Positions 33,951-61,479 are shown, counted from the first letter of the stretch. The stretch is DNA of 64,000 nt from Syntrophobacterales bacterium Delta_02 (GCA_001603955.1 LVAA01000062.1:8-64007), one strand, 5' to 3'. A program made the numbers and translations. Notes: generated by a model not told the origin, from the sequence alone.

Positions 33951-34056
33951 GCCTTCAAGGTCCAACGTCAAAGGTTCAACGTTAGAAGAATACGGAATGG
34001 GGATCGTTCCGGGAGAGAAAACTGTTTCAGGTTCCGGGTTTCACGTTTCAAGTTAA
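33951..34056. repeat. Composite repeat element (chimeric: 9-mer-type left part, 7-mer-type right part)
   Basis: The left part TTCAACGTTAGAAG resembles TTGAACGTTAAGAAC of the 42.2-kb element. The right part is 4 heptads GTTTCAG GTTCCGG GTTTCAC GTTTCAA (34024-34051). Lies between convergent gene ends. Confidence 0.5.
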
Positions 34057-34105
34057 AAGCCAGGAAAAACACCGGTGCCCGCAGGGGCGGGGTCTGTCAC
34101 CGGTC

Positions 34106-34942
34106 TTACCCGGTCTCTTCGAGACGCCTGACGAGATTACCTGCCACCTGTCTTCGATATTGCGCTGACGCGCGGATATCGCTTATGGGACGGACCCCCT
34201 CTCGGGTAATGGCCGCCGCCGACACCAGGGTGTCTCCATCCATGGGTTTCCCGGCAAAGCACTCGTCGAGGTCCCGCGAGGTAAATACCGTGGGGGCAAC
34301 GCTTCCAAAGGCGCACCGCGCCCTGGCGACGACCCCCCCGGCGCCGATGGCCGCGGCGAAGGCGAAGGAGGCAACGCTGATCGCCATGGCCTTGCGCTGT
34401 CCCACCTTCTCGAAATGGTTGAAGTTGAAACCATGGTCCTTCCGCATGACGACGGCACAGAGGACCTCGCCTGGCGCAAGCTGCGTCCGGCCGGGACCCG
34501 TGATGAAGGCCTCGACGGGTATCCTGCGTTCCCCCCGGGGCGAACGAAGCTCCACTTCGGCTCCATAGATGTAGAGCGGCGGTAATGTGTCGCCCGCCGG
34601 GGATGCGGTACAGATATTGCCGCCGATCGTCCCCATGTTCCGCACCGCCGGCGCCCCCACGTGCCGTGCCGCCTCGCGGAGAAGAGGGAAAAGGCCCTTG
34701 ACGAGACCGCCGGACACCAGTTCGCTGTGTGTCGTTGCGGCGCCGATACGCACCTCGTCCGCGCTTTCCTCGACCACCCTTAGTTCCTTTACTTTCTCGA
34801 TACAGACCAGGGGGCTTTCAACACCCTGAAATGGCAGGCGCACCATGAGATCGGTACCACCGGCGAAGATCCTCACCGCGGGCTGATCGGAGATTATCCC
34901 GAGGAGTTCCTCCAGTGACAGCGGGAGATAGACCTTAGCCAT
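34106..34942 (-). CDS. Molybdenum hydroxylase FAD-binding subunit (CoxM/XdhB-like)
   Basis: ORF 34106..34987. The start MAKVYLPL at 34942 overlaps the upstream stop (ATGGCTAA). FAD motif IFAGGTDLMV. Confidence 0.85.
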   Translation of the reverse strand: MAKVYLPLSLEELLGIISDQPAVRIFAGGTDLMVRLPFQGVESPLVCIEKVKELRVVEESADEVRIGAATTHSELVSGGLVKGLFPLLREAARHVGAPAVRNMGTIGGNICTASPAGDTLPPLYIYGAEVELRSPRGERRIPVEAFITGPGRTQLAPGEVLCAVVMRKDHGFNFNHFEKVGQRKAMAISVASFAFAAAIGAGGVVARARCAFGSVAPTVFTSRDLDECFAGKPMDGDTLVSAAAITREGVRPISDIRASAQYRRQVAGNLVRRLEETG

Positions 34943-35420
34943 CCGAACCGCCCCCCCGCATCTTTGCCGCAGCGTCCTCGATGGCATCGACTATCTTCTG
35001 GTATCCCGTACACCGGCAAATGTTGCCGCTGATCGCTTCCCGGATCTCTTCCCGCGTCGGCCCGGCATTCTCCTCCAGGAACCCGACGGCCGTCATCACC
35101 ATGCCGGGCGTGCAGAAACCGCATTGCACCGCGCCGAGTTCGACGAAAGAACTCTGCACGGGATGCAGCTCACCGCCGCGGGAAACCCCCTCGATGGTGA
35201 CCACCTTTCTGCCATTCAGCTGTGCCGCCGTCATGAGACAGGATAGTTTCACCACGCCGTCGATGAGGACCGAGCAGGCACCGCACTCCCCCTCACCGCA
35301 CCCCTCCTTCGTACCGGTAAGGCCAAGATCCTCGCGCAGAACATCTACGGCCCTCCTGGCAGGGTCTGTCACGACGGTCATGGGGGAACCGTTCAGGATA
35401 AAGGATATCTTCTCTTTCAC
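34935..35420 (-). CDS. (2Fe-2S)-binding small subunit of a molybdenum hydroxylase (CoxS-like)
   Basis: 161 aa. GCGEGECGACSV, QCGFCTPGMVM and NICRCTGYQKI motifs. Confidence 0.9.
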   Translation of the reverse strand: MKEKISFILNGSPMTVVTDPARRAVDVLREDLGLTGTKEGCGEGECGACSVLIDGVVKLSCLMTAAQLNGRKVVTIEGVSRGGELHPVQSSFVELGAVQCGFCTPGMVMTAVGFLEENAGPTREEIREAISGNICRCTGYQKIVDAIEDAAAKMRGGGSDG

Positions 35421-37702
35421 CCCTCCCCTCCTTCCCGGGCAAGAGCCGACAACACCCTCTCCGGGGTCAGCGGCAGTCTCGATACCCTCACCCCGCAGGC
35501 ATCGTGAAAGGCATTGGCTATGGCGGGCAGGGACCCGCTGATGACCACCTCTCCGATCCCCTTCATACCGAAGGGACCCGTCGTTTCATCGGACTCTACA
35601 GGAACGGAGACCATGTCGGGGACATCCAGGGACGTGGGAACGATGTAGGTCGCCAGGTCTCCCGTCTCGTGCCGGCCATCCTTTACGATGTAATCCTCCA
35701 TGAGGGCGTACCCGATGCCCTGCGCGATGGAACCCTGGACCTGCTGATCGTACAGGGAGCGGTTCAACACCCTGCCCGCATCGGTGACGGCCACATAATC
35801 GACGACATCTATCCTTCCCGTCAGGGTATCGACCTCGATGCGGGCCAGATGCGCGCCGTAGGAGAACAGCACGTGTGTGCCAAGGTACATTATCTCCATG
35901 GTATTCTCGTCGTAAGGGGTCCGGAAATAACCCTTGCACGACCTGTCTCCGGCATCGATGAGGGCCGCCACGTCACGGAGGGAGATCTCACGGCCCCTTT
36001 CCCTGATCCTCACAGCACCCGGGACCAGCTCCACCGAGTCAGCACCCTCGACCCCCGAAGACCGGGCAGCCGACTGAAGGATGGCCTCCCTGAGTGCCGT
36101 CGCCGCCTGTATAACGGCATTACCGAAGGTGTACGTCGTACGGCTTGCCGAGGAGGAGCCCGAGGGAAGACCGTGGTCCGTATCGGGCTGGACGATCTCC
36201 ATCGTTGCCGGGTCCTGGTTCAGTACCTCAGCCGCTATCCTGAGGTAGGTGGCCGCATTCCCCTGTCCCATATCGGTGACACCCGAATAGACGCGAAACG
36301 TCCCGTTCTCTCTCAGTTCCACCCGGGCATTCGCCTCGTCGGGAACCACGGCGGGATAACCTATCGCGTGGGCCATGCAGCCGACACCGCAGCCGCGCCT
36401 CTTCCACCCGCGGGCCGACGCCTTCCAGGCCTCCCGGTCTCTCCACAAAGGATGGTCCAGGAGCCTGTCCACACACTCCGGGAACCCCGTCGAGTATTTA
36501 AGCTCCACGCCCACGCAGTTCAGGTCGCCCGTCCTCAGCGCGTTGACACGGCGCAGCTCGAGAGGGTCAAGGGCGAGCTTCTGCGCCACCATGTCGACAA
36601 CCTGTTCCATGCCCGCCATCGACTGCGGCACGCCGAAACCCCGAAAAGGGCCTCCCAGGGCATTGTTCGTATAGGCACAATACCCCTCGATGTGAACGTT
36701 GGGTATCCGGTATGCCGATCCGGCATGTTCCACACCCATTGCCATGATCTCGCCGGAGAGTCCCGCGTAAGGGCCACCGTCGAAGTAGAGCCTGCAGGAA
36801 AGCGCCTGAAACGCGCCGTCTTTCTTCGCTCCGAGGCGATAGTACGTCTTTGCGGGGAGCCTCTTCACCCCGGCGAGAAAACTCTCCCGTCTGTTCCACC
36901 ACATCTTCACGGGCACTCCCCCCGAGTTCAAAGCGGCAAGGCCCAGCAGGCATTGCACCGTTATACCGTCCTTCCCGCCGAAGGCCCCTCCGAGATAGGG
37001 GGCAATGACACGCACTTTATCCACGCCGAGGCCCAGGGCGGCCGCCATCTCCTTCCTGTCCCGGTGGGGGTTCTGCGTCGATACCACAATGACCAGCACC
37101 CCGCCGTCATCGACATAGGCCCAACCGGCTTCCGTTTCGAGATAGGCGTGCTCCTGGCGCGGTGCCTCGAAAATACCCTCGGCTACGACGTCGCAATCGC
37201 GAAAGGCCGCGTCGGGGTCTCCCCGCCTTACACGTACAGCCCTCAGGAGATTCCCTTCCTCGTTGTCCTCGTGGATCCTGGGCGCACCTTCCTTCAGGGC
37301 CTCTTCAGGATCGAAGACACCCGGCAGCAGCTCGTGGTCGAAGGTGATGAGATCGAGCGCCTCGCAAAGCGCCTGACGGCTGTGGGCCACCACCACGGCG
37401 ATGGGGTCCCCCGCGTGGCGGATGACCCTGTCGACAAGCACCGGCTGATGGTTCCTCACGATCCCGAGCCTGTTCGACCCGCCAACATCGCGGAAGGTCA
37501 GGATGCGAACAACACCGGGATGCGCCGCGGCGAGTGATGTGTGAACGGCTAGCAGCCGTGCGTGCGGCACGAGAGCCCGCTTCGCGCCGGCCCAGAAGAA
37601 CTCTTCCGAATACTCGTCGGCGGCGTATCTCTCCCGTCCCGTGACCTTCGAGAAGGCGTCGAGGCGGGGTCCGTCGAGGACATGTCTCCCACCTTCCTTC
37701 AC
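35417..37702 (-). CDS. Xanthine dehydrogenase / aldehyde oxidoreductase family molybdopterin-binding large subunit
   Basis: 761 aa. GGAFGGK and GGPFRGFGVPQ motifs. 4-nt overlaps with both neighbours. Confidence 0.9.
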   Translation of the reverse strand: MKEGGRHVLDGPRLDAFSKVTGRERYAADEYSEEFFWAGAKRALVPHARLLAVHTSLAAAHPGVVRILTFRDVGGSNRLGIVRNHQPVLVDRVIRHAGDPIAVVVAHSRQALCEALDLITFDHELLPGVFDPEEALKEGAPRIHEDNEEGNLLRAVRVRRGDPDAAFRDCDVVAEGIFEAPRQEHAYLETEAGWAYVDDGGVLVIVVSTQNPHRDRKEMAAALGLGVDKVRVIAPYLGGAFGGKDGITVQCLLGLAALNSGGVPVKMWWNRRESFLAGVKRLPAKTYYRLGAKKDGAFQALSCRLYFDGGPYAGLSGEIMAMGVEHAGSAYRIPNVHIEGYCAYTNNALGGPFRGFGVPQSMAGMEQVVDMVAQKLALDPLELRRVNALRTGDLNCVGVELKYSTGFPECVDRLLDHPLWRDREAWKASARGWKRRGCGVGCMAHAIGYPAVVPDEANARVELRENGTFRVYSGVTDMGQGNAATYLRIAAEVLNQDPATMEIVQPDTDHGLPSGSSSASRTTYTFGNAVIQAATALREAILQSAARSSGVEGADSVELVPGAVRIRERGREISLRDVAALIDAGDRSCKGYFRTPYDENTMEIMYLGTHVLFSYGAHLARIEVDTLTGRIDVVDYVAVTDAGRVLNRSLYDQQVQGSIAQGIGYALMEDYIVKDGRHETGDLATYIVPTSLDVPDMVSVPVESDETTGPFGMKGIGEVVISGSLPAIANAFHDACGVRVSRLPLTPERVLSALAREGGEG

Positions 37703-38823
37703 AGGGCAGCCTCCCGTTCGGAAAGGATCTCACCGAGACCCCGCACGAAGTCCTCCATCGCCTCATGTACCCCGATGCTTACGCGGATCCAGTTGGGGAA
37801 ACGAAAACCCGTCATCGTCCGAATCATGACCCCCCTTGCCATGAGTTGCCGGTACACAAGGGTATCGCTCAGAGGGAGCCTCACCATGACGTAGCACCCT
37901 TCACCGGCGTGCGTCTCCAGGCCAAGGCTCGCCAGCTCCTCAAGCAGGTACGCCTTCTCGGCATTGACGTGCCGCCTCGTCCGGGCCACGTGCTCATCGT
38001 CGCCGATGGCGGCCAGCGCCGCCTCCTGGGCAAGGCCGTTCACCGAGTAGACGACACAGGTCCGCCGGATCACATCCACAACGTCACGGCTCCCCGCAAG
38101 ATAACCGATGCGGAGCCCGGCAAGGCCGTACATCTTGGAAAATGTCCGGAAGGTCACGAGGTTGGGGTACTCCTTGAGGAGCTTCATCGCGTCGGGATAG
38201 TCGTCTGCCTCGACGAATTCGCAGTATGCCTCGTCGACGACGACGACCTGTCTCCCGGCGACCCTGTCGAGAAACCTTCTGAGCCTCGTTTCGTCCCAGT
38301 AGGTCCCCGTGGGGTTGTTGGGGTTGCAGACGAAGAGTATTTTCGTCCTGTCGTCTATGCGGGCAAGCATCCCCTCGTCGTCGAAACCGAAATCCTTGAG
38401 AGGCGTGAGCCTCGCCTCGAAGCCGGAGAAGGCCGCCACCCATTCATAGACGGCAAAGGTCTTGTCGGCGGTGATGATGTTGTCCCCTTCCTGGCAGAAA
38501 GCCTTGATAACAAAGGCGATGGCCTCGTTCGCCCCGTTGCCGAACACGATCTGGTCGGGATCGAGACCGAATCTTTCCGCCAACCTCACGCGCAGGTACC
38601 AGGAATCACCGCTGGGATAAATGCTCGCCCTCTTCGGCGGGAACTGCGCGATGACCCGCGCCGAGCCCTCGGGAGGGCCCAGGGGGTTCTCGTTGTTGTT
38701 CAGCCGCCACAGGTGGTCCACCTTGTAGAACCTCATCAGTTCCGGGTCGGGACGGGACGGGATGTACGCCTCGAACTTCTTGATATATTCAGGGACAAGC
38801 CTGTTAAGGGGAACGTCAAACAC
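37699..38823 (-). CDS. Class I/II PLP aminotransferase, histidinol-phosphate aminotransferase-like
   Basis: 374 aa. NNNENPLGPP, CNPNNPTG, and FSKMYGLAGLRIGY (PLP lysine). Confidence 0.85.
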   Translation of the reverse strand: MFDVPLNRLVPEYIKKFEAYIPSRPDPELMRFYKVDHLWRLNNNENPLGPPEGSARVIAQFPPKRASIYPSGDSWYLRVRLAERFGLDPDQIVFGNGANEAIAFVIKAFCQEGDNIITADKTFAVYEWVAAFSGFEARLTPLKDFGFDDEGMLARIDDRTKILFVCNPNNPTGTYWDETRLRRFLDRVAGRQVVVVDEAYCEFVEADDYPDAMKLLKEYPNLVTFRTFSKMYGLAGLRIGYLAGSRDVVDVIRRTCVVYSVNGLAQEAALAAIGDDEHVARTRRHVNAEKAYLLEELASLGLETHAGEGCYVMVRLPLSDTLVYRQLMARGVMIRTMTGFRFPNWIRVSIGVHEAMEDFVRGLGEILSEREAAL

Positions 38824-38833
38824 GTGAGAGACC

Positions 38834-40141: not shown

Positions 40142-40309
40142 CCCCAGCGGCGTTATCTATGGCTTACCCTGCGACGGCCTTATGGTATATATCAGGAATA
40201 CATCGTTCCTGCAACCTCTTGTTCACCAGTTGCGCACAACGGCGTGCGAGACGTGTCCTTCAATGACAATGTCGTCCTTACGTTTCCCTTTTACCCCGAT
40301 TCTGCTACA

Positions 40310-42241
40310 ATGTGGCCCATGGCCACACCCCTTCTCCCCATGACACAGGCCGAGGTAAAGGACCGCGGGTGGGACGGCCTCGACGTCGTCCTCGTGACCG
40401 GCGACGCCTACGTGGACCATCCTTCCTACGGCACCGCCGTCATCGGGCGCGTCCTCGAGGCGGCGGGCTTTCGCGTCGGCGTCATCGCTCAGCCGGACTT
40501 CAGGACCACGCGCGATCTCAGCCGCTTCGGAAGGCCCCGGCTTTTCTTCGGCATAACCGCCGGCAACGTGGATTCCATGGTCGCCAACTATACCGCGCAC
40601 AAACGCCCGCGGCTAAGCGATGATTACTCTCCCGGAGGAAAACCCGGGCTGCGTCCCGACCACGCCGCCATCGTCTACGCCAACAGGGCCCGCGAGGCTT
40701 TCAGGGACGTCCCCATCGTGCTCGGCGGCATCGAGGCAAGCCTCCGCCGGTTCGCCCACTACGACTGGTGGAAGAACGAGGTCCGGCGTTCCATCCTTCT
40801 CGACAGCAGGGCGGACATCCTCGTGTACGGCATGGGGGAGGCACAGGTGGTAGAGATAGCCCGGAGGCTCGCGGCGGGTGAGAACCTTCACGGGATCAGG
40901 GGAACAGCGGTGGTGACGGCCGCAGGCCGCACCACCTCGCAGGTCCCATGCCACACGTCGCAAGGGACAGCACAAGGGCAAAAGACTGAATTCTCCCCAA
41001 ATGCCGTCTCGGCAATATCTGCATTCCGAAACGGGAAAGGGGAAACGGGAAACCTGAAACGTGTGACCTGCGACCTGGGACTTGTAGTTGAGATCCCTTC
41101 GTATGAGGAGGTAAGGGGGGATATCGACAAGTTCAATGAGGCATTCCGGATCGTTGTGGAGAACCAGGATCCCTTTACGGGAAAAACACTGGCGCAGGGG
41201 CATGCCAACCGCTTCGTCATCCAGTATCCCCCTGCCCTGCCGCCGGACACGAAAGACCTCGATGCCGTTTACGAGCTTCCCTATGCTCGCCGCTGCCATC
41301 CGTCGTATGACAGGGCGGGGGGCGTGCCCGGTTTCGAAACGGTACGCTTCTCCATTATTTCCCACCGGGGTTGTCCCGGCGAGTGCTCGTTCTGCGGCCT
41401 CTCTCTCCACCAGGGGAGGATTGTCTCGTCGCGAAGCGAATCGTCGGTACTGAAGGAGGCCGGGACACTTGCGAGGAGAAGGGATTTCCGCGGCACCATC
41501 ACCGACGTGGGCGGTCCTACCGCCAACCTCTACGGGGCTGTCTGCGGAAGGTGGCAGGGAAAAGGGGCCTGCGGCACCCGTCACTGCCTCACGCCTTCGC
41601 CGTGCAGGAACCTCAAGCCCGGTTACGAAAAGGGCCTTTCCCTTTATGGAAAGCTGCGCGCGCTGCCGGGCGTCAAACACGTCTTCATCGAGAGCGGCTT
41701 CCGCCACGACCTTCTTGTCGACCCGAAGGCCCGCGGCTATCTCGAAAGGATCTGCAGGGACCATCTGAGCGGGCGCATGAAGGTTGCCCCTGAACATTCT
41801 TCCGACAGGGTCCTCGATATCATGAACAAACCCTCCTTTTCGGTATACGAGCAATTCTCAGCCCTCTACCACTCGATATGCAGAAAGCTGGGGAAGGACC
41901 AGCACCTCGTCAGCTATTTCATCAGCGCCCACCCCGGCTGCACACTGGAGGATTCTCTTTCCCTCGCCCTGAGACTTGGCGAACTGGGTATCCACCCCGA
42001 ACAGATACAGGATTTCATGCCCCTGCCAATGACCCTTTCCGGCACCATATATCACACAGAGAAAGACCCTTTCACCGGAAAACACGTGTATGTCCCCAAG
42101 ACCTTCCGGGAGAGAAAGATGCACCGCGCCCTCATCCAGTACAAGAACCCGAAGAACACCCCGCTGGTCAGGGAGGCGCTGAAACTCCTCAAGAAGGAGT
42201 ACCTGCTGCCGAGGCTGATGCCGGGGAGAAAGACGGTTTAA
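40310..42241 (+). CDS. ygiQ: YgiQ-family (UPF0313) radical SAM protein
   Basis: ORF 40244..42241. The start at 40310 or 40319 aligns with family N-termini ([34 protein letters not shown]). Radical SAM motif [12 protein letters not shown]. Confidence 0.85.
40937..41083. repeat. Intragenic heptad-repeat segment inside ygiQ (look-alike of the intergenic composite elements)
   Basis: 8 consecutive heptads GAAACGG GAAAGGG GAAACGG GAAACCT GAAACGT GTGACCT GCGACCT GGGACTT (41028-41083). ACGTGTGACCTGCGA (41059-41073) is complementary to TCGCAGGTC...CACACGT (40937-40958). AAAAGACT at 40980-40987. Confidence 0.5.
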
Positions 42242-42399
42242 ACCGCTTGAACCGCTTGAACCGCTTGAACCGCTTGAACGTTAAGAACGAAAGACGGGAG
42301 CGAACGAGTACGGTCTGACTCCGGGTTGTCATGCGTGGGACGGACCCTGTCCGCTCCTTCATTTCCAGTTTCTAACGTTCAAGCGGTTCAAGCCGTCTT
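42230..42399. repeat. Composite hairpin element, 9-mer class, with (AACCGCTTG)x4
   Basis: Perfect 4x 9-mer at 42241-42276. Inverted partner AACGTTCAAGCGGTTCAAGCC at about 42374-42394. Termini AAGACGG (42230-42236) and CCGTCTT (42393-42399). The ygiQ stop TAA lies at 42239-42241. Confidence 0.8.
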
Positions 42400-42478
42400 T
42401 CCCCGGTCTTTGTTTGCCTTACCCCCTGTTTCGTTGTATGATACCACGAATATCAGGTCAACAAGGGGGTCGTAGGAA

Positions 42479-43165
42479 TTGGTGACGGGGAATATTGTCT
42501 GGCACAGGTTCGTTTGTCTTGCGGGGATCCTTCTTATCGCGGTTGCCTTGCTCCCTCCCTCCTCCGCCGAGGCGGCGCGGCGCAGGTCGCTTCATGCCGG
42601 AAAGGACGTTAGGGGGATCACATTCGAGGAATTCTGGGCCAAGGCCCGCGAGGAAGGGATGAAGTGGGCAGGCAGGCGGCTAAGGGTGCGAAGGATCGTA
42701 TCTGTGGCCGTGGTGGGTTTTGATGGACGCAACGGACGCTCGCCTGTCTGGGAGGCACAACTGGTGCGTTGCGACAGGACCCAGTCGCCTGACGATGAAG
42801 AGGTCATCTCAAGGATATGCAGGGGAAAGACGATCACGGTCCGCATGGTGGAGGCAGGAGTGGAAAGGGCCGACCCCGGGGTACACGTATCAAAGGAGAG
42901 GCCTTTCCGGGGCGCTTCCATCCCCGAGGAGAGGATCGTCATCAGTCCCCAGCGTGCTGAGGAAACGGCCAACAAGTACAAGCAATACAACCCTGCCGAG
43001 GTCGACAGTTACAGCTATGAACTCAGGTATGACCACAGGAATGACAGGCCCCTCTGGGTCATCAAGAGAACCTGCGGCTACAGGGGCAAATCGGAAGGCC
43101 GCTGTCAGCCGGGCGACCACTGGATAGTCAAGGTCGACGCGGAATCGGGAGAGATCGCAAAGTGA
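42479..43165 (+). CDS. Hypothetical secreted protein
   Basis: 228 aa with a TTG/GTG start after an AAGGGGG SD. Signal-peptide-like FVCLAGILLIAVALLPPSSAEA. Confidence 0.5.
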   Translation: MVTGNIVWHRFVCLAGILLIAVALLPPSSAEAARRRSLHAGKDVRGITFEEFWAKAREEGMKWAGRRLRVRRIVSVAVVGFDGRNGRSPVWEAQLVRCDRTQSPDDEEVISRICRGKTITVRMVEAGVERADPGVHVSKERPFRGASIPEERIVISPQRAEETANKYKQYNPAEVDSYSYELRYDHRNDRPLWVIKRTCGYRGKSEGRCQPGDHWIVKVDAESGEIAK

Positions 43166-43306
43166 AAGACCGCTTGAGCCGCTTGAATAGCTTGAGCCGC
43201 TTGACGGCTTGCTGACAAAGTGGACTTATGCGTCATTCCGGCGAAGGCCGGAATGACGACAAAACAAAGAAAGACCGAACCGAGAAGCGGTTTTATCAAC
43301 GGTCTG
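43166..43306. repeat. Composite hairpin element, 9-mer class, with a nested REP-like palindrome
   Basis: Starts right after the stop TGA (43163-43165): AAGACCG CTTGAGCCG CTTGAATAG CTTGAGCCG CTTGAC. The right part is GAGAAGCGGTTTTATCAACGGTCT. The core holds a 12-bp perfect stem at 43231-43258. Confidence 0.7.
43231..43258. repeat. REP-like palindrome of the widespread IPAFAGMT-type class
   Basis: CGTCATTCCGGC-GAAG-GCCGGAATGACG. The minus-strand translation reads VIPAFAGMT. Confidence 0.7.
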
Positions 43307-43329: not shown

Positions 43330-43821
43330 ATGAAAATACTGCTGTCACCGATCACGAAGGATGATGCCCGGCAGATCATGGAGATCTTCAACTATTACAT
43401 TGAGAACACCTTTGCGGCCTATCCGGAGCATCCCCTTCCCGATGATTTCTTCGAGATGCTTCTCATCATGAGCAGCGGGTATCCGACGGTTGTCGCCAGG
43501 ACAGAGGACGGGATGGTGACCGGGTTCGGCCTGCTTCGGCCTTACAATCCCCTCCCCGCCTTTTTCAAGACCGCCGAGATCACCTATTTTCTCAAACCCG
43601 GTTTCACGGGCCAGGGCATCGGCAAGGCGATACTCGACTATCTCCTCGATATGGCAAAGGAGAAAGGGATCAACGCGGTCCTCGCGAACGTGTCGTCCCT
43701 CAACGAGGAAAGCATCGCCTTCCACCTGAAGAACGGCTTCTCCGAATGCGGCCGCTTCAGGGAGGTAGGCCAAAAAAAGGGACACGTCTTCGACGTGATC
43801 TACTTCCAAAAACTGCTCTAA
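43330..43821 (+). CDS. GNAT-family N-acetyltransferase
   Basis: ORF 43228..43821. The upstream extension crosses a repeat, so the start is taken at 43330 (MKILLSPITKDDARQIMEIFNYYIENT). GNAT motif A-like FTGQGIGKAILDYLL. Confidence 0.85.
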   Translation: MKILLSPITKDDARQIMEIFNYYIENTFAAYPEHPLPDDFFEMLLIMSSGYPTVVARTEDGMVTGFGLLRPYNPLPAFFKTAEITYFLKPGFTGQGIGKAILDYLLDMAKEKGINAVLANVSSLNEESIAFHLKNGFSECGRFREVGQKKGHVFDVIYFQKLL

Positions 43822-43979
43822 AAGACGGTTCCAAGTCTCAGGTCTCAGGTTTCAAGGAAAAGATAAAAACTGTCCTGGTCAGTCCCTCTTCGGTTTTTGA
43901 CTCGAAACGCGCAACCCGGAACCTTTACAGCAACTGTCTTTTGCCTGAAACCTGGAACTTGAAACCTGAAACCGTCTTC
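43822..43979. repeat. Composite hairpin element, GGTTTCA heptad class (type specimen)
   Basis: 9-bp terminal inverted repeats AAGACGGTT (43822-43830) and AACCGTCTT (43970-43978). Left arm GGTTCCA AGTCTCA GGTCTCA GGTTTCA. Right arm CCTGAAA CCTGGAA CTTGAAA CCTGAAA. Fills the gap between the convergent stops at 43821 and 43982. Confidence 0.85.
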
Positions 43980-43981
43980 AA

Positions 43982-45548: not shown

Positions 45549-45620
45549 GGTGATGGGTCATGGGTGATGGGAAAGACTCGAAGGCCATACCTATTACCCA
45601 TGACCCATGACCTATAACCC
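45549..45620. repeat. Composite hairpin element, GGTGATG/CCCATGA heptad class (copy 1)
   Basis: Left arm GGTGATG GGTCATG GGTGATG GG. Short core GAAAGACTCGAAGGCCATA. Right arm CCTATTA CCCATGA CCCATGA CCTATAA CCC. Lies 11 nt upstream of the ATG at 45538. Confidence 0.8.
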
Positions 45621-45682: not shown

Positions 45683-45770
45683 AGGTGAGGCGGGTGATAG
45701 GCTATGGGAAGAAATGCGGGTTGGAACCGTTGGAACCGTTACACCGTTCTTCCCCATGACCCATGACCCG
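45683..45770. repeat. Composite hairpin element, GGTGATG/CCCATGA class (copy 2, degenerate left arm)
   Basis: Left AGGTGAGGCGGGTGATAGGCTATGGG. The core contains tandem GGAACCGTT x2 (about 45723-45740). Right CCCATGA CCCATGA CCCG. Confidence 0.6.
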
Positions 45771-45863: not shown

Positions 45864-45945
45864 GGTAATAGGTAATAGGTGACGGGCGGCCGACCATGAC
45901 CCTGCGGTTCTTTTTCCCATCACCCATGACCCATTACCCGTAACC
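45864..45945. repeat. Composite hairpin element, GGTAATA/CCCATTA class (copy 3)
   Basis: Left GGTAATA GGTAATA GGTGACG GG. Right CCCATCA CCCATGA CCCATTA CCCGTAA CC. Ends 18 nt before the ATG at 45963. Confidence 0.8.
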
Positions 45946-49215: not shown

Positions 49216-49553
49216 AAAGAGAAAAGATGGACAAAAAAGCCGAGGCTCACGAACCCCCCGAACGCTTCGAGACGACCCGGCACTACATCTCGGCACTCCT
49301 CGAGGAAGGGACATACACATCGAAAGAGCTGTCGAGCATCGTCAAGATACCGGAGAGGGACATCTGCGACCACCTGGAACACCTGCAGCGCTCCCTGAGC
49401 AAGGGTGACAGGCGCCTCACCGTGATCTGTGCCTCCTGCAAGCACTGCGGGTTCGTCTTCAAGAAGCGCGACCGCCTCACAAAACCCGGCAAATGCCCCT
49501 CCTGCCGCTCCATCCACATCCAGCCACCGGTGTTTCATATAGAACAGTTTTAA
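49212..49553 (+). CDS. Small HTH plus zinc-ribbon regulator-like protein
   Basis: 113-aa C-terminal part of ORF 48918..49553. The ATG at 49212 overlaps the upstream stop (ATGA). CASCKHCGF...CPSCRS zinc-ribbon. Confidence 0.6.
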   Translation: MKREKMDKKAEAHEPPERFETTRHYISALLEEGTYTSKELSSIVKIPERDICDHLEHLQRSLSKGDRRLTVICASCKHCGFVFKKRDRLTKPGKCPSCRSIHIQPPVFHIEQF

Positions 49554-49657
49554 GTGTTAAGTTTTAAGTGAAATACCCTGCGAGGCAGAAGACGTTCGGT
49601 GCAGACTCTCACCGCCGGGCATTCAACACTTAAAACTTAACACTTAAAACTTAAAAC
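49547..49657. repeat. Composite hairpin element, GTTTTAA/GTGTTAA heptad class
   Basis: Left arm GTTTTAAGTGTTAAGTTTTAAGTG (49547-49570). Right arm CACTTAAAACTTAACACTTAAAACTTAAAAC (49627-49657), its reverse complement plus one extra unit. The first unit supplies the stop TAA at 49551-49553. Confidence 0.85.
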
Positions 49658-52427: not shown

Positions 52428-52438
52428 GAGGAAACGAT

Positions 52439-55200: not shown

Positions 55201-55221
55201 CCTTACACACCGGAACTCACG

Positions 55222-55254
55222 AACCCTCCCCCTGAAAGGGAGGGTTTTTTCTTT
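55222..55254 (+). terminator. Rho-independent terminator between convergent asd and the hybrid kinase gene
   Basis: Stem AACCCTCCC / GGGAGGGTT (55222-55230 / 55238-55246), followed by a T-tract. Confidence 0.75.
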
Positions 55255-55284
55255 CACGGCCTGCCCTGAATGCGCTAAAGCCTG

Positions 55285-58200
55285 TCAGGCCCTATCAAGT
55301 ACCTCCCTGACCATCCTGAGGAGAACGTTGGACCCCAGGGGTTTCGAGAGAAAATCAAACTCCCCCTCCTCGATACCCTTCTCGAGGACAACGTCCTGGG
55401 TATACCCGCTTATGAAGATGACCTTCATTCCCGGGGTGATCCCGCTTATCGCCTCGTAGGCTTCCCTGCCGTTCTTTCCGGGCATCACCGAATCGATGAT
55501 CAGAAGGTCCACTCTCTCGAGTTGCCTGAACTTCTCCACCGCATCCTCACCATCGACGGCTTCGAGGACCGTGTAGCCGTATTTCGTCAACACGTCCCGT
55601 ATCAGACGTCGCACGTCGGCATCATCATCGGCGACAAGAACGGTTTCGGTCCCTCCCCTCACCTGCTGCGGGGAAACGACCTCCTGTTCCGCGGTCGTGG
55701 ATATAGCGGGAAGGTATATATGGAAGGTCGTGCCCATGCCCTTCTCGCTGTACACGTTGATATAACCTCCGTGCCGCTTGACGATCCCGTAGACCGTTGA
55801 GAGCCCGAGACCGGTCCCTTTCCCCGTTTCCTTAGTGGTAAAAAAGGGATCGAAAATATGCTCTTTCGCGTGCTCGTCTATACCTGATCCGTTATCGGAA
55901 ATGGAAAGGAGAGCGTATTTCCCCGGTTCGCCCAGTCCGTGAGCCGCGACAAACTCACCGTCCAGCTCCACGAGTTCAGTCTCGATCGTCAGCGTCCCGC
56001 CTCGCGGCATGGCGTCCCTTGCGTTGCTCGCAAGGTTGAAGAGTATCTGGTCGATCTGCGTCGTGTCAGCCATGACCACCAGAGCTTCCTCGCTGAGACA
56101 GGCCTTGAGCTTGATATCCTCGGTGATGAGCCTCTCCAGCAATTTCTGGGTACTCCTTACGGCCTCGTTCAGATCGACAGGGCTCAGGCGCACCGGTTGG
56201 AGCCTGCTGAAGGTAAGAAGGCTTGCCGTGAGGTTAACGGCCTTCTGTGAAGAGGTCATGATGTGCTCCACGTATTCCTGAAGGGGATCCTCCTCGCTGA
56301 GCTCGAGTTGGAGGAAGGTCGCGTATCCCATCAGGACCGAAAGGATGTTGTTGAAGTCATGGGCGACACCGCCCGCGAGGGTGCCAATGGCCTCCATCTT
56401 CTGCGACTGCCGGACCCGGGCCTCGAGACGCCTGCGCTCGGTCACGTCTTCGGCGGTATTATCGTAGTAAAGCACGTTCCCCGCCGCATCACGGACCACC
56501 CTGGAATTTATGCTGACCCAGATCCTGGTACCGTCCTTGCGACGCATTTCCACCTCGAAACCTTCCACCACACCCCTCAATTCAAGCAACTCTTTCCTTC
56601 TTTCCCGGTCCCCGGCATCGGCATACAACTCCTGCGCTATGTCAGCGACTGAATCGATCATCTCCTGCTGTGACCCGTACCCGAACATTCGCGCACCCGC
56701 CGGGTTGATGTTCAGGAACCGTCCTTCCGGTGTGGACCGGAATATCCCCTCGATGGAGTTCTCGAAGATGCTCCGGAATTCTTCCTCGCTCCGGCGCAGT
56801 TCCTCCTCCGTCCGCTTACGGTCGCTGATGTCGACGAGAAAACCCTCAAGGAACGCCGGATTGCCCTCCTCACCGCGTCCTATCCGTGCGCTTAAGGAAA
56901 CCCATATCCTCTGTCCGTCCGCGCGACGGCACCGGCATTCATGCCCGACGATCTCCCCCTTCTCCAGGACCGCGCCGAGAACGTTGTCCGGACCTCCATC
57001 ATCCACGGAGAGCTGACTCCTCAGATCGCTCACACTCGCCATCAGGTGCTCCGGGGAATCATAGCCCAGGATACGCGCCATTGAGGGGCTAGCGCTCAGG
57101 ATCCTTCCTTCGGGATCCGTCTGGAAGAGGCCTTCGATCGCGTTCTCGAAGATCTCCCGGTACTTCCTTTCGCTGCGGCTCAGTCCCGCCATCGTTTCCC
57201 TGAGTCTTTCCGTCATCAGGTTGAATGTCCGCGCAAGGGTACCGACCTCATCACGCGCACCGGGGTCCACCACCTGGTTCAGATCTCCGCCCGTAATGAT
57301 CTCTGCGGCCCTTGTCATCTGACGGATATGGCGCGTAATGGTCCAGGCAACGAAGATGCCAAGAAGCCCTATGAGAAGCGTGATCGTGATCCCTGCCACA
57401 CCCATAATGCGCGTCATCCGGTTCCTTCCGCCGCTCAGGATGGTACGATAAGAGTGCAGTTCATCCTCGTGGACACCGACCCCGATCACCCAGTCCCAGG
57501 GAGCGTAATAGGCCAGGCGGGCCACCTTCCACCTCGGCTCCGTCTCACCGGGGTTCTGCCAGCGGTATCGTTCGGTGGCCATTTCCCCGGGTTTCAGGGC
57601 GGTCGCCTTCCCTATGATCTCCCTGATGACATAGCGGCCGTCGCTGTCCCTGCTGTCCCATACGTTCTCATCGTCCCTCTCGCCCTTCCAGGATATGATG
57701 TAGCGGCCCCGGTCTTCCCCCTTGCCCCCGACGACATAGACATATCCGGTCTCTCCCACCTTCGTCTGCTGAATGGCGTTGCGTATCCGCATCTCGACGC
57801 TCTTCTGCTTGATACCGGCATATATCATCCCCACAAGCTTGCCCGCCTTGTCCCTGAGCGGTTCGTACGCCGTCAGGTACCAGGCGTTCACCACATAGGC
57901 GCGGCCGTGATAGGTCTTTCCCCCCAGCACTGCGGCGACTACGGGGTTCGGGCTGCCGTCGGGATTGATGGCGGGTATGTACGTGCCTATAGCGCGCCTG
58001 CCCTGTGAATCCCTGACGTTCGTCGCCACGCGGAGCATGTCTCCCCGCTCGTTCATGCGCTGAAAAATGGTGGCTGTCTCGCCGACAAGCCCCTTGACAT
58101 CGTCGACCACCGGGGTCCTGACGGTCGGCTGCGAATTCTGCCCGATCCATTTCCCACCCACGAGCATCCCCGGCAATCCCACCCTTACGGACCGCCCGGT

Positions 58201-58530
58201 GAACTGGTTCACCGCCGTCCACTCCACTCTCTGGCGGGAAAGGTCCGCGCCGCCTCTGGCGGCGAGTATGTGCCGCATGACATTGAGGTTTCTTGAGAGC
58301 TGCTCCCGGACGGCCTCATCCTCCGTCCGGACCAGGTTGTAGGCACCCTGAGTGATGTGATCCAGGTCCGCATCCAACAGCCGGTCCACTTCCCTCTGAG
58401 CAAGGTCGTTGTACTGGCCGCTCTGCCAAACGGCAAGTGCCACAAGGGCGGCCGCTGTAATAAGGACACTGCCCGCCCCCAGAATGGAGATCTTGATGTT
58501 GAGCTTCAGGTCCCTCAGAAAACGAAACAT
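55285..58530 (-). CDS. Hybrid sensor histidine kinase / response regulator with Cache-like periplasmic domain, HAMP and two PAS domains
   Basis: 1081 aa. Two TM segments flank a domain of about 330 aa. HAMP, PAS x2, HisKA ([10 protein letters not shown]), HATPase (GTGLGLS), REC ([11 protein letters not shown]...[14 protein letters not shown]). Confidence 0.9.
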
Positions 58531-58688
58531 TTCTTCGCCTCCCTAACTCCTGTAGCCCCCCATTACGCAAGTATAGCATTGACCTCCTCTTTTGGGTATG
58601 ACTTACGCAAGCATCGAAACTCTCCCCGAAAAAAACCCGGTATCGGCCAATCCGGTCGCGATAACCGTACGATGGCCTTTCGTTCCTT

Positions 58689-58719
58689 CCCATCACCCAT
58701 GACCCATCACCTGTTACCC
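58689..58719. repeat. Solo arm of the CCCATGA heptad class
   Basis: CCCATCA CCCATGA CCCATCA CCTGTTA CCC. No convincing partner arm upstream. Confidence 0.6.
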
Positions 58720-58738
58720 GCCTCTCTCATTTTTCCCT

Positions 58739-58767
58739 TTGCATTTGAGGCCGCAAGCGCCTAGAAT
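58739..58767 (+). promoter_or_regulatory. Candidate sigma70 promoter giving a leaderless or near-leaderless mRNA for 58774..59349
   Basis: TTGCAT (58739-58744), 17-nt spacer, TAGAAT (58762-58767). The ATG at 58774 begins 7 nt after the -10. No SD. Confidence 0.45.
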
Positions 58768-58773
58768 ATCCCC

Positions 58774-59349
58774 ATGCCCGATACCATTGCAACAGACGGA
58801 TCCGTAAGAGAGCTGACCTTCCAGGTCCCTCTTTCGGAGATCTACAAGTTCAACGAACCGGAAAAGGTGAGCGACCTTGGTCAGGTCCTGGAGGCCGGCC
58901 GGCAGAAACCTGCCGCCATGGGTCCCGCCAAGAGGTTCATCACAAGCACGATAGGGATATTCTGCCTCATGATCGGCCTTACGGGCCTCTTCGGCCGGAA
59001 CCCCGATATCTTCAGCGTCCTCTGGATCATCTTCGGAACGGTGATCATCTGGGTCTTCCTGGCAAAGCCGGAGATGGACAAGAGGAAGGCCGGGGGCGCC
59101 TCCGACACGAAGAAGGAACCCGAGGTGACCCTCGTCGTCAACTCCAACAGGATAGTGATACGCTTACCCGGCAGTGAGACGGCAAGGGAGTGGACGGAAT
59201 TCCTTCAGTACAAGAAAACAAAGAAGGGGATCCACCTCCACTTCCTCGACGGCACAACGATCTGGCTGCCCGAAGAAGCTTTCTACGACAAGGACGAAAT
59301 GAAGGAACTTCTGCGGTTGCTTCAAAAGAAGGTTCCAGGTTCCAGGTGA
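58774..59349 (+). CDS. Hypothetical membrane protein (YcxB-like layout: two TM helices then a soluble C-domain)
   Basis: 191 aa. Hydrophobic pair ITSTIGIFCLMIGLTGLF / FSVLWIIFGTVIIWVFLA. The last 7 codons lie in a repeat arm. Confidence 0.6.
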   Translation: MPDTIATDGSVRELTFQVPLSEIYKFNEPEKVSDLGQVLEAGRQKPAAMGPAKRFITSTIGIFCLMIGLTGLFGRNPDIFSVLWIIFGTVIIWVFLAKPEMDKRKAGGASDTKKEPEVTLVVNSNRIVIRLPGSETAREWTEFLQYKKTKKGIHLHFLDGTTIWLPEEAFYDKDEMKELLRLLQKKVPGSR

Positions 59350-59459
59350 AAAACCTCTGAAGTAGAAGAGAGCTGTCCCTCTTGGGGCTTTGACTCGAAA
59401 CGCGCAACCCGGAACCCACAACTGTCTTTTGCCTGAAACCTGAGACTTGAGACCTTCTT
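59326..59459. repeat. Composite hairpin element, GGTTCCA heptad class, sharing a core with 43822..43979
   Basis: Terminal inverted repeats AAGAAGGT (59326-59333) and ACCTTCTT (59452-59459). Left arm GGTTCCA GGTTCCA GGTG. Right arm CCTGAAA CCTGAGA CTTGAGA CC. The core 59375-59453 is near-identical to 43882-43965. Confidence 0.85.
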
Positions 59460-59791
59460 TATCTTTTCGGTGGTTTCGTGGTTTCCAGCTCGGCTATCTC
59501 TTCTTCGATGTCGCGTATGGTGAGACGCATCCGCGTGATCGAGTTGATGCGGTCACGGATAAAGGGATCGTCGGAGGAGACGCTCTTATCGCAGGTGAAC
59601 TGGTCGTACACGTATTCGCCTATCTCCGCGTTCGTCTTTTGAATGGACCGCTGCAGCTTCGTAACGTCAAGATATTTCCGCTTGCCGATCATGGCCTGCT
59701 TCTCCACGCCGAAGGCTATATCCTGGGCCGTCTCCTTCAGCGTCTTCAACCCTTCCTCGGTCCTCTTCCTTATATCATCAATAAGCGCCAC
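59459..59791 (-). CDS. Hypothetical coiled-coil protein
   Basis: ORF 59459..59851. A GTG at about 59791 follows a GGAGG SD. A promoter-like TTGACC...CAGAAT lies inside the longer ORF. No family recognised. Confidence 0.45.
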   Translation of the reverse strand: MALIDDIRKRTEEGLKTLKETAQDIAFGVEKQAMIGKRKYLDVTKLQRSIQKTNAEIGEYVYDQFTCDKSVSSDDPFIRDRINSITRMRLTIRDIEEEIAELETTKPPKR

Positions 59792-59862
59792 CACGACCTC
59801 CGATCCAACATGGATTTTCAATATTCTGCACCTTTCCGCAGGAAAGGTCAAACAGACCGAAA

Positions 59863-59967
59863 AAGACCGCTCGAGCCGCTTGACGCCCCGTCGAACCTTA
59901 AAGAAAGACTTTGCCTCTGCATCTTCCGTTCAAACGGTTCAAGCGGTTCAAGCGGTTTCAACCGTCT
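59863..59967. repeat. Composite hairpin element, 9-mer class
   Basis: Left AAGACCG CTCGAGCCG CTTGACG. Core with GAAAGACT (59903-59910). Right GTTCAAACG GTTCAAGCG GTTCAAGCG GTTTCAACCGTCT, ending at the phosphofructokinase stop (59968-59970). Confidence 0.75.
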
Positions 59968-61137
59968 CTAATACAGAAACATCGGTTTCCCCAGCGTGTC
60001 GCGCACCTTTGGACGGTATGTCTCCACGTCGTACAGGGCAGTCACGTCGACCTGTTTCTTCGCGGCAACGACCATGTCCAGCGGGACCGTGGTGTATATC
60101 GCCTGATGGAGCGCCACCATGCGGCCCCTGTGGCCCATCGCTATCTGGTCGAGGGCCAGGCTGCCGTAAGACACGGCCACCATCCGGTCGAGGGAGTCGG
60201 GTGCTCCGGAACGCATCATGTAGGCAAGCTGCTGGTAGATGACGTTCACGCCCGAGCGCTGCTTTATCTCCTGGGAAATGATGTAACCCACACCGCCCAG
60301 CTTCTTGTGGCCGTAGGCATCCTCTATCCCCGTCTCGGTCACGGTCCCACCCACGGTATGAGCACCCTCGGAAATGGTCATGATCGCGTAGTTGGAGGGG
60401 TTCCTGGACCGGTCCGTCACGAGAAAACCGACGAGCCTGTCGAGGTCGAAAGGCACCTCCGATATGACCGCCCTGTCGACGTCGGCAAGGTAGGCCGCTA
60501 TGAGCGACGTTTCACCGGAGTTCCGGCCGAAAAGCTCGACGACACAGATGCGTTCATGGGAACCCGTCGTGGTCCGCAGGGCGTTGATGGCATCCACCGA
60601 GCGTGTGACGGCCGTCGAGAAACCGATGCAGAAATCCGTTCCGAACACGTCATTGTCCATGGTCTTCGGAATGGCGACAACCTGGACACCCTCCTTGTTG
60701 AGCCGGACCGCGTAGCTTAAGGTGTCGTCCCCGCCTATGGGGATGATCGCGTCTACTGCAAGGAACTCGAGAACCTTCAGGATATGCCTCGTGCAGTCGA
60801 TCCTTCCCGATTCCGTCGGGACCCGGTCGCCTGCCTCCACAAAGGGAGGCACTTCATCGGGATTAACGTTGCCCGGATTGGTCCGCGACGTGTGAAGGAT
60901 GGTCCCGCCGGTACGGTCGATGGTCCTCACCGTGTCGAGACTCAGAGGCATGACAAACCGCTGCGCCGTTTTCGGATTGTCGGGATCGATGTCGAGAAGG
61001 CCCATCCACCCTCTGCGGATACCCACCACGTCGATATCCTTCGAATCGGCACGGGCAACGACGGCCTTTATGGCCACGTTAAGCCCCGGAACATCTCCTC
61101 CCCCCGTCAGCACGGCGATCTTCTTCCTCCTTCCCAT
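59968..61137 (-). CDS. pfp: 6-phosphofructokinase, predicted pyrophosphate-dependent
   Basis: 389 aa. [21 protein letters not shown] (Asp rather than Gly) and IPKTMDND (Lys rather than Gly), which are the positions known to discriminate PPi- from ATP-dependent PFKs. Confidence 0.85.
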
Positions 61138-61185
61138 AAAAACACCTCCAATCCCTATCCGGGGCAGCTTCTGACTATAATGTTC

Positions 61186-61214
61186 TGTATAGTCGGGAAA
61201 GAAGGGAATGTCAA
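61186..61214 (-). promoter_or_regulatory. Candidate sigma70 promoter of the phosphofructokinase gene
   Basis: The minus strand reads TTGACA (61209-61214), 17-nt spacer, TATACA (61186-61191). GGAGG SD lies 6 nt before the ATG at 61137. Confidence 0.45.
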
Positions 61215-61225
61215 GGAAAGAGGAA

Positions 61226-61436
61226 AAGACCGTTTCAGGTTTCAGGTTTCAGGTTTCAGGTTTCAGGTTTCAGGTTTCAGGTTTCAGGTTTCAGGTTTCA
61301 GGTTTCAGAAGAAAGACTGCGGGAGGAGGCCGGTTGTCAACACAATTACTGGCTGGTGCCATTTGCTCCGCCAGGGTCTCCCCCCGGTGGCCGTTTCTTG
61401 CCTTTGCCTGAAACCTGGAACCTGAGACCTGAAACC
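61226..61436. repeat. Composite hairpin element, GGTTTCA heptad class, with expanded left arm
   Basis: AAGACCG, then (GTTTCAG)x11, GAAAGACT at 61311-61318, and right arm CCTGAAA CCTGGAA CCTGAGA CCTGAAA CC (61407-61436). Confidence 0.85.
61232..61308. repeat. Perfect heptanucleotide microsatellite (GTTTCAG)x11
   Basis: 77 bp with no interruption. Begins 18 bp upstream of the -35 of the candidate phosphofructokinase promoter. Confidence 0.95.
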
Positions 61437-61479
61437 ATCAACGACCTGAACTTCGGAAACCGAAGTTCAGGTCGTTGAT
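61437..61479. repeat. Perfect 20-bp-stem palindrome
   Basis: ATCAACGACCTGAACTTCGG-AAA-CCGAAGTTCAGGTCGTTGAT. The right end overlaps the -35 of the candidate promoter for 61524..62567. Confidence 0.9.

Follow-up and report, generated by a model that had tools for sequence, protein, structure and literature searches.

Heptamer repeats of cyanobacteria (STRR) were reportedly described by Mazel et al. in 1990. Here we analyse a family of hairpin elements whose arms are tandem arrays of short units, found in a 64,000-nucleotide stretch of DNA from Syntrophobacterales bacterium Delta_02 (GCA_001603955.1, LVAA01000062.1:8-64007; hereafter, the window). The closest described systems are paired. Geobacter metallireducens carries class 1 to class 3 sites made of 8-mers GTTGCTYN x4 (24 pairs), 8-9-mers TCTCCGTS[Y] x3 (21) and heptamers MTYCTGA x5 (8) (PMC2700814). 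The partners lie on opposite strands at variable distance in intergenic DNA, with several classes per genome and insertion sequences (IS) beside them, and were interpreted as putative binding sites of global regulators (Aklujkar et al. 2009, PMC2700814). Xanthomonas genomes contain 70-75 convergent inverted pairs of GGGAATC heptamer arrays each, mostly at most 50 bp from stop or start codons and sometimes over the stop; most are transcribed, and their length varies between species with the single or paired type kept (Rehm et al. 2015, PMC4692102). GAC(C/T)AAT x8 was reported at Nostoc recO (bioRxiv 10.1101/2022.06.06.494920) and TAACTGA repeats in Beggiatoaceae, with one inverted set among 170 in Beggiatoa (PMC4679880).

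The elements of the window and of related Syntrophorhabdus genomes share all defining features of the G. metallireducens classes, and MTYCTGA matches the unit CTGAAAC at 6/7 positions. The other unit sequences and the lineage differ, however, and the G. metallireducens description includes no AGAC punctuation, core inversion, copy inside an open reading frame (ORF) or evolutionary dynamics. The defining features of the Xanthomonas pairs are likewise present, but there one G-rich, quadruplex-capable unit is used, whereas Syntrophorhabdus has many classes and no G-tracts. As in the STRR and Beggiatoa repeats, tandem heptamers of several classes per genome are dispersed beside start and stop codons, and Nostoc GACCAAT/TTGGTCA equals the Syntrophorhabdus AATGACC class up to rotation; unlike here, those repeats are mostly direct arrays, with few inverted pairs in Nostoc. 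The novelty implied by a first-pass annotation of the window is therefore lost to the Geobacter paired 7-9-mer sites (PMC2700814) and the Xanthomonas inverted heptamer pairs (PMC4692102). No report of such repeats in Syntrophorhabdus was found in the literature. The architecture is already known but unexplained; the new part is comparative evidence on how such elements evolve. Judging from sequence comparison, we consider it somewhat probable that they are palindromes evolving at the DNA level by slippage and arm-to-arm recombination, with loops collecting insertions, and that they are largely selfish or neutral.

The first-pass annotation had listed 11 loci as inverted tandem-array hairpins. 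Tandem Repeats Finder detected 7- or 9-nt arrays of 2.3-11 copies at all of them, and ten, at 42.2-61.5 kb (E2 to E11, Table 1), consist of tandem 7-/9-nt units, a unique 13-100-nt core and reverse-complement units. Folding was tested with RNA parameters against 100 dinucleotide shuffles per locus. Strong elements gave z-scores of -4 to -9.6, and most listed loci folded far better than their shuffles; seven element-free gaps in 1-33 kb gave z of about 0, save one with a terminator-like hairpin. The locus at 33951-34056 (E1) dropped out of the list (z +0.5, arms not complementary). The proposed solo arm at 58689-58719 does hold an array and yields no fold, and an intragenic look-alike at 40937-41083 proved to fold (z -2.8 / -3.6) and to lie in frame within YgiQ. 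The window has 19 arrays with a period of 7-9 and 2.5 or more copies, compared with a mean of 1.3 and a maximum of 6 in 200 dinucleotide shuffles of the window; strict inverted array pairs number 5 (shuffle mean 0.0, maximum 0). Thus, at the scale of the window, simple-sequence content does not account for the elements, and the repeat family is real, dense and well structured. Shuffling unit order costs a mean of only 1.3 kcal/mol (Wilcoxon p = 0.04): the arms pair by unit class and not in strict register, in line with the first-pass remark that such arms can pair in several registers. A model in which arms are exact copies made by template switching was dropped because this effect is weak.

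The outer ends of elements mostly take the form (A)AGAC(N)G ... C(N)GTCT(T); at the inner junctions, ...GGCAAAAGAC is frequent on one side and GTCTTTTGCC... on the opposite side. A common scheme, AGAC(N)G-units-CAAAAGAC ... GTCTTTTGCC-units-C(N)GTCT, holds genus-wide. Of 120 arrays, 50% have AGAC/GTCT no more than 14 nt away, versus 19% of random positions, and 8.3% versus 0.7% have it at both flanks. On the plus strand, 11/24 AAAGAC sites of the window are in or at elements, which cover ~3% of the sequence, and AAAGAC was present at 5/5 positions where a recurring (A)GAAAGAC motif had been noticed. The unit classes, first taken for unrelated sequences, are mostly writable as GGT-initial variants (GGTTTCA, GGTTCCA, GGTTTTA, GGTGATG, GGTTCAAGC, GGTTCCAAC), and orthologous arrays are ~2 substitutions per unit apart and homogenised along the array. 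Most cores are unique. Core X is common to E4 and E9 (93% identity over 42 nt) and recurs in E1; its reverse strand is a run of decayed heptads, GGTTCCG GGTTGCG CGTTTCG AGTCAAA, and it reads as an older inner arm. Core Y recurs in E11, in locus L013 and at the E4 site of relative L169, there with different 8-mer arms. Nested or duplicated arms are common among related genomes.

Orthologous sites were compared in syntenic loci with YgiQ identities of 86% (L163), 85% (L169), 80% (L167) and 79% (L166), and for the PFK region in L083 (87%) and L084 (82%). The outer borders of E2, AAAGACGG ... CGGTCTTTGTTTGCC, are kept across relatives. Between them the numbers of left/right units are 4/2 in the window (93-nt core), ~11/11 in L163, 5/4 in L167 and 2/0 in L169. 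L163 has CCGTTGGAA-type units and a 233-nt core with two copies of a small palindrome, L167 a 24-nt loop, and L166 a solo AATGACC array. The E2 arms co-vary: the window combines CCGCTTGAA with TTCAAGCGG, and L163 and L167 combine CCGTTGGAA with TTCCAACGG. Units of E8 are GTGTTAA/TTAACAC in the window and GTTTTAG/CTAAAAC in L163, with complementary differences in both L163 and L167, and the E8 core is inverted between window and L163 (reverse-complement score 49, forward 14); L166 lacks the element. The core of E4 is inverted in L167 relative to the window (reverse-complement score 77, forward 19), an event independent of the one at E8. In L163 the same E4 core is collinear (score 95) and the left arm has 6 units versus 4 in the window, and L169 has the substitute element with 8-mer arms and core Y. 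For E3, L163 has an ortholog of the 4-unit left arm, core and right arm occur only in the window, and L163, L167 and L169 retain the left arm alone.

At one and the same site upstream of the conserved PFK promoter we found GGTTTCA units in the window (E11, with arms of 11 perfect versus 4 imperfect copies), the GGTAATG class in L083 and (CTGTTCC)x10 in L084. The E10 site holds a solo (GGTAATA)x5 arm in L083 (5172-5215), directly behind the PFK stop, and a CCTGAAA-type arm in L084. Synteny between L083 and the window ends at this solo arm, so that arrays may be markers of rearrangement breakpoints. As controls, one element shared by L044 and L048 (87% DNA identity) has unchanged copy numbers and core, and the element-free LpxK-LeuA gap is well conserved, so that the element gaps are the fast-evolving ones. 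Near-identical L163, L164 and L165 showed no element polymorphism; L164 diverges only past an IS, probably at an assembly join. Orthologous intergenic regions thus differ in arm length, have lost one arm or lack the element in some relatives, and the slippage, homogenisation and recombination between arms seen there bear out the shared generating mechanism suggested at first pass.

The IS of L163 (13891-15345; ends ~13753 and 15405; DDE_Tnp_1 / DUF772 transposase) lies inside an outer CCTGAAA arm of the E4 ortholog. It has the terminal inverted repeat CGGTCTGTTGCCCAAA and TTGA at both flanks, and the L164 contig diverges right behind it. This insertion echoes those of ISGme8/9 beside the Geobacter paired repeat sites.

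One array can be followed in coding sequence. YgiQ homologs contain a hypervariable linker, in which the window copy has ~26 extra residues compared with its closest homologs. In 5/5 compared genomes the DNA of the linker consists of tandem heptamers, the units at the same codons being (GGTTCCA)4 in L166, (GCGGGTT)5 in L167 and (TCGCAGG)3-4 in L169, L163 and the window. The units are lineage-specific, fully homogenised and ~2 substitutions apart. The window copy adds an in-frame core and right arm; protein P0005 adds 21 nt, that is, 3 units. To judge from these alignments, the YgiQ array is a case of concerted evolution in place. Different units at one site therefore need not mean independent insertion.

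When one genome per species was scanned for the junction-plus-arm pattern TTTGCCTGAAACCTGRRAC, 23 loci were obtained from at least 6 Syntrophorhabdus metagenome-assembled genomes (MAGs), most with the same build and different cores; the window is accordingly assigned to a Syntrophorhabdus. In 158 kb of these loci there are 33 inverted array pairs. Further unit classes appeared (AATGACC/TTGGTCA, GGTTTTA, CGTTAGAAC, ATAGGACGA), giving at least 8 overall; gaps between complementary arrays on opposite strands are 13-233 nt. Single genomes from Acidobacteriota, Bacteroidota, Planctomycetota and other Desulfobacterota likewise carry true GGTTTCA hairpins that have the TTTGCC junction. Loci picked by a PFK homolog alone, which are unbiased with respect to repeats, contained other inverted arrays right behind the stop codon, for example GGTGATG x4.3 in L108. 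About 25 Acidobacteriaceae matches of the genome scan were rejected as elements, being one conserved coding sequence. Viral contigs contained 20 GGTTTCA arrays, none with an inverted partner, and carriage of the hairpins by phages is not supported. BLAST of E4 against plasmids gave no match. A search of the whole window against Rfam returned nothing at gathering thresholds, hence no family match, and E5 gave only spurious sub-threshold matches to miRNA precursors.

Within the window, 10 of ~13 intergenic gaps at 33.9-61.5 kb hold an element, close to the near-universal occupancy described at first pass, and elements make up about half of the intergenic DNA there (a hand estimate from coordinates). 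At least 12 gaps in 1-33 kb hold none; the genes there are ordinary. The stop codons of YgiQ, the Zn-ribbon regulator and ORF 58774-59349 are inside E2, E8 and E9, respectively, and E3, E4 and E10 begin on or next to a stop (TGA-AAGAC, TAA-AAGAC and TAG-AGAC, the hyphen marking the boundary). Elements are also found away from 3' ends. Both E5 and E7 are placed between a conserved promoter-like site and the ribosome-binding site of a divergent gene, and E11 adjoins, on the upstream side, the conserved -35 of the PFK promoter.

We propose that inverted pairs of 7-, 8- or 9-nt arrays, mostly bracketed by AGAC...GTCT, would settle in untranslated DNA of Syntrophorhabdus and last long at each site; a single tolerant protein linker, that of YgiQ, would have been colonised as well. 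Within an arm, replication slippage or unequal exchange would lead to gain, loss and homogenisation of units, which would explain the lineage-specific unit at each site. Recombination between the inverted arms would keep them complementary by gene conversion and flip the core by crossover, so that joint arm change and core inversion could represent the two outcomes of inverted-repeat recombination. Because a strict mirror order of unit variants is weakly supported, the arms would mostly slip independently and be reconciled at times. The loop would gather other small repeats, and occasional loss of one arm would leave a solo array. Identical cores at unrelated sites suggest that at least parts of elements were copied to new places, and some copying process would seed new sites. 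Transcribed elements would fold into very long hairpins, at the 3' ends of mRNAs and within 5' untranslated regions (UTRs). There they may have side effects like those of repetitive extragenic palindromes (REP), acting as exonuclease barriers, RNase III substrates or obstacles beside stop codons, and would be neither dedicated terminators nor protein-binding sites.

Several observations weigh against this proposal. Transposase, target-site duplication and clean empty site were not found, and the copying step is without a mechanism. Upstream of PFK (window, L083, L084) and at the E4 site (L169, L166) the units differ at 4/7 positions and the core is unrelated; these differences look more like replacement than divergence in place. 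The mirror unit order expected from frequent arm conversion is weakly supported by the permutation effect given above (mean -1.3 kcal/mol, p = 0.04). Neutral drift would not lead one to expect stop codons to abut AGAC nearly as often as they do, which hints at targeting or function. Finally, hairpin potential outlasts sequence turnover, as selection on structure would also explain. The tight adjacency of stop codon and AGAC, together with pairing kept through turnover, keeps functional and transposon-based explanations alive.

A possible, though doubtful, explanation is that the elements are functional RNA hairpins under structural selection, serving as 3'-end stabilisers or terminators and as 5' UTR stabilisers, with the unit sequence drifting while the arms pair. 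It fits the very stable folds, the start of most copies at or a few bases from a stop codon, and the A-rich/T-rich flanks AAAAGAC...GTCTTTT, which resemble a bidirectional terminator. The arms of E2 and E8 remain complementary through unit turnover, E5 and E7 are conserved in four genomes, and the comparable Xanthomonas repeats are mostly transcribed and within 50 bp of stop codons (PMC4692102). However, the strand-specific signature expected from the selection on structure suggested at first pass was not found: with crude ORF calling, the sense strand folded better in 9 cases and the antisense strand in 8, hence no G-U signature. Intrinsic terminators have a short G+C-rich stem, a loop of 3-8 nt and a U-tract and lie at 3' ends only, unlike these elements with their long loops (13-230 nt) and 5' UTR sites; a terminator scan called none of them. 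Some copies lie in 5' UTRs, or upstream of promoters between divergent genes, places in which a terminator would do harm or serve no purpose. Decayed copies and solo arms occur frequently, and at several sites L166 and L169 have no hairpin or a different one, with no gene loss. The lack of sense-strand preference, the non-terminator shape, the 5' UTR and promoter sites and hairpin loss in relatives with intact genes led us to rank dedicated functions below palindrome evolution at the DNA level.

REP sequences are single imperfect palindromes of 20-40 nt whose head, of GTAG type, is conserved and which have a cognate transposase, RAYT. MITEs (miniature inverted-repeat transposable elements) such as Correia and Nezha, and the palindromic elements of Rickettsia, are small, have inverted ends, and include copies that provide a gene with its stop codon or lie in frame within it. 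Like REP, BIME and REPIN sequences, the present elements are gap-filling extragenic palindromes forming inverted pairs with a variable linker and turning over at orthologous sites; unlike REP, they have tandem-array arms of several classes and an AGAC flank motif rather than GTAG. With MITEs and the Rickettsia elements they share small size, inverted ends and stop-supplying or in-frame copies, but compared boundaries show no target-site duplication, internal sequence is mostly not shared, and no parent IS with matching ends was seen. Their units are contiguous, without the spacers of CRISPR, and the window has no cas genes. The first-pass opinion that they are untypical of REP/BIME, ERIC, CRISPR and MITE families is supported: they are none of these (classical MITEs included), and the REP/BIME, CRISPR, MITE and intrinsic-terminator definitions each fail at least one tested feature. 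Large palindromes, such as plastid inverted repeats and those of the Y chromosome, undergo arm-to-arm conversion and spacer inversion. Concerted arms and a spacer flip are seen here too, on a scale of tens of bases rather than kilobases and with tandem-repeat arms.

It is unlikely, in our estimation, that the elements are MITE- or REPIN-like non-autonomous elements, moved in trans by an enzyme recognising AGAC-flanked ends, with unit classes being subfamilies inserted independently at hot spots. End and junction motifs conserved over loci and genomes, paralogous copies with the same core, different classes at one site in close relatives, the in-frame ORF copy and copies supplying stop codons all speak for such movement, as does a 10-mer of the terminal inverted repeat of the L163 IS (CGGTCTGTTGCCCAAA) that is also present at the E3 right end and in an L016 element. 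Yet the IS-end match is just 6-10 nt in 2 elements, and most cores are unique, so that whole-element copy-and-paste is not the main mode. Neither a target-site duplication nor a clean empty site was seen. No RAYT / IS200-type gene turned up in the tested window ORFs or, by precomputed Pfam, in ~300 kb of Syntrophorhabdus loci, nor was a RAYT (Y1 transposase) found in the scanned window ORFs or the called genes of L163-L169. In addition, the YgiQ array changes unit class in place without insertion. The narrower idea that the elements are MITEs of the L163 IS was set aside, the 10-mer CGGTCTGTTG (CGGTCT(GTTG)), all that the IS shares with two elements, being too weak a link.

It is quite improbable that an unrecognised, widespread process builds and reseeds palindromes of 7-9-nt period, specifying them by structure and not by sequence, for example an enzyme that would recognise AGAC-flanked hairpins beside stop codons and lengthen or copy their arms using a short template. 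Such a process would explain why units recur in distant phyla (GGTTTCA-TTTGCC in four phyla, TTGGTCA in Nostoc, GGTGATG in L108) and why whole elements are swapped at identical sites.

By analogy with the proposal of Aklujkar et al. for G. metallireducens (PMC2700814), the elements could be binding-site arrays for nucleoid-associated or global regulators (IHF/HU), which we regard as very unlikely. The regular 7-9-nt period and the paired arrangement suit it, E11 and the L084 array adjoin the -35 of the PFK promoter on its upstream side, and in Nostoc reporter assays heptamer repeats altered LexA/NtcA effects (bioRxiv 10.1101/2022.06.06.494920). But the 8 or more unit classes would call for equally many proteins, close relatives differ in the class found at a gene with gene and promoter conserved, and many copies are between convergent stop codons, far from promoters, and one is translated. 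Chance simple-sequence content or assembly artefact has next to no probability and is refuted: short-read contigs do tend to break at elements, and a Logan contig with identical YgiQ stops right past the gene, but 0/200 shuffles produced an inverted pair and the same elements occupy syntenic sites in independent NCBI, JGI and Logan assemblies.

Table 1. Repeat elements of the window. Where two fold z-scores are given, the second is for the minus strand.
Feature	Coordinates	Strand	Build	Fold z	Context and orthologs
E1	33951..34056	.	decayed remnant, no hairpin; both 'arms' on same strand; 34030-34057 a degenerate inverted copy of the E4/E9 core (reverse complement, <=4 mismatches)	+0.5 / -1.2	3' of intrinsic-terminator-like hairpin (~33910-33945) of dodecin-like gene; L163 site has solo (CCTGNGA)x9 array
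YgiQ element	40937..41083	+	degenerate left heptads, GGGCAAAAGAC junction, core, right arm GAAACGG...GAAACCTGAAAC...GACCTGCGACCTGGGAC	-2.8 / -3.6	in frame inside YgiQ radical-SAM ORF
E2	42229..42400	.	AAAGACGG + (CCGCTTGAA)x4, 93-nt core, (TTCAAGCGG)x2 + CCGTCTTT	-8.2	includes YgiQ stop codon (42239-42241); promoter-like site 42414-42442 just downstream
E3	43165..43305	.	AAAGAC + (CCGCTTGAG-type)x4, core with palindrome GTCATTCCGGCGAAGGCCGGAATGAC (43232-43257), degenerate right arm to CGGTCT	-7.8	first base is last base of upstream stop codon
E4	43821..43978	.	AAAGACGG + 4 GGTTTCA-type units, core X, GTCTTTTGCC + (CCTGAAA-type)x4 + CCGTCTT	-5.7 / -7.8	whole gap between two convergent stop codons
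E5	45549..45620	.	(GGTGATG/GGTCATG)x3, core AAAGACTCGAAGGCCATA, (CCCATGA-type)x5	-6.5	5' UTR of ThDP-enzyme gene, between conserved promoter-like site and ribosome-binding site; orthologs in L163, L166, L167
E6	45683..45770	.	weak hairpin, GGTGATA/CCCATGA class; loop with small 9-mer array (GTTGGAACC)x2.3	-1.7 / -2.8	L163 ortholog has different core
E7	45864..45945	.	(GGTAATA)x2.6 ... (CCCATCA-type)x3.4	-1.2 / -5.1	5' UTR of PAS histidine-kinase gene, downstream of TTGTTA-17-TATAAT; right arm kept in L163, L166, L167
E8	49546..49657	.	(GTTTTAA/GTGTTAA)x3.6, 57-nt core, (TTAAAAC/TTAACAC)x4.3	-8.1 / -9.6	includes stop codon of Zn-ribbon regulator gene (49551-49553)
Solo arm	58689..58719	.	(CCCATCA-type)x3.3; no fold		between divergent genes
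E9	59326..59459	.	AAGAAGG + (TTCCAGG)x2.6, core X, GTCTTTTGCC + CCTGAAA-type arm	-2.8	paralog of E4; includes upstream stop codon (59347-59349; ORF 58774-59349)
E10	59862..59967	.	AAAGACCG + 2 CCGCTTGA-type units, core with AAAGAC, (GTTCAAGCG)x3.3 + CCGTCTC	-4.0 / -3.6	adjoins PFK stop codon, minus-strand reading TAG-AGAC
E11	61225..61436	.	AAAGACC + (GTTTCAG)x11 perfect, AAGAAAGAC + core Y (TTGTCAACACAAT), TTTGCC + (CCTGAAA-type)x4.3	-8.6	gap between divergent genes, directly upstream of conserved PFK promoter

Other repeats were observed beside the elements. A small separate palindromic repeat, GTCATTCCGGCGAAGGCCGGAAT(GAC/CCA) (fold z -7.6), occupies window 43232-43257 in the E3 core. Its relatives are at ~32780-32810 and ~32860-32885 of the window, at 11969 and 12095 in L163, at 3718 in L083, and in L060, L065 and L069; they sit in the cores of E3, of E2 in L163 (the two copies, as an inverted pair) and of the L083 element, and also in other gaps. 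Judged by sequence, it looks like an independent REP-like family landing in loops. Adjoining E11, upstream of an HD-domain gene, window 61437-61479 is a perfect 20-bp palindrome, ATCAACGACCTGAACTTCGG-AAA-CCGAAGTTCAGGTCGTTGAT (z -11), a possible operator or terminator whose right half is conserved in L083. A GGTCTCA/CCTGAGA hairpin in L049, which is a Planctomyces MAG, has the TTTGCC junction and lies (~1700-1830, minus strand) immediately 3' of an apparent tRNA 3' end (GGTTCGAATCC...CACCA).

The element-free half of the window has a G+C content of 0.53-0.55 over 10-28 kb, compared with ~0.59-0.62, and a strongly negative GC skew; 1-33 kb may be younger or differently replicated DNA. It contains 76-nt direct repeats at 29632-29707 and 30430-30505, 92% identical, 798 nt apart and with no significant fold. 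They were considered as flanks of paralogous genes and rejected as such, the adjoining genes not being paralogs. Four tandem 123-nt repeats at 25264-25731, 61-81% identical, are in the minus-strand ORF 24846-25946 and probably encode a repeated protein domain.

Automatic gene calls were found to run into arrays (L163 17091, L169 4599, L166 11836), extending the N-termini of the ThDP enzyme and the GNAT protein and the C-terminus of YgiQ by repeat-encoded residues; these extensions are annotation artefacts caused by the elements. In practical terms, the repeats break short-read assemblies and insert low-complexity linkers into proteins, and other repeats land in their loops. Reports of heptamer repeats beside genes go back to 1990 in cyanobacteria, and those of paired forms to 2009 in Geobacter and 2015 in Xanthomonas. 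In Syntrophorhabdus the case is dense and multi-class, and with several syntenic genomes at 80-93% identity the dynamics are directly readable. The upkeep of these structures thereby becomes a testable question, through orientation and copy-number polymorphism in reads and through transcript ends.

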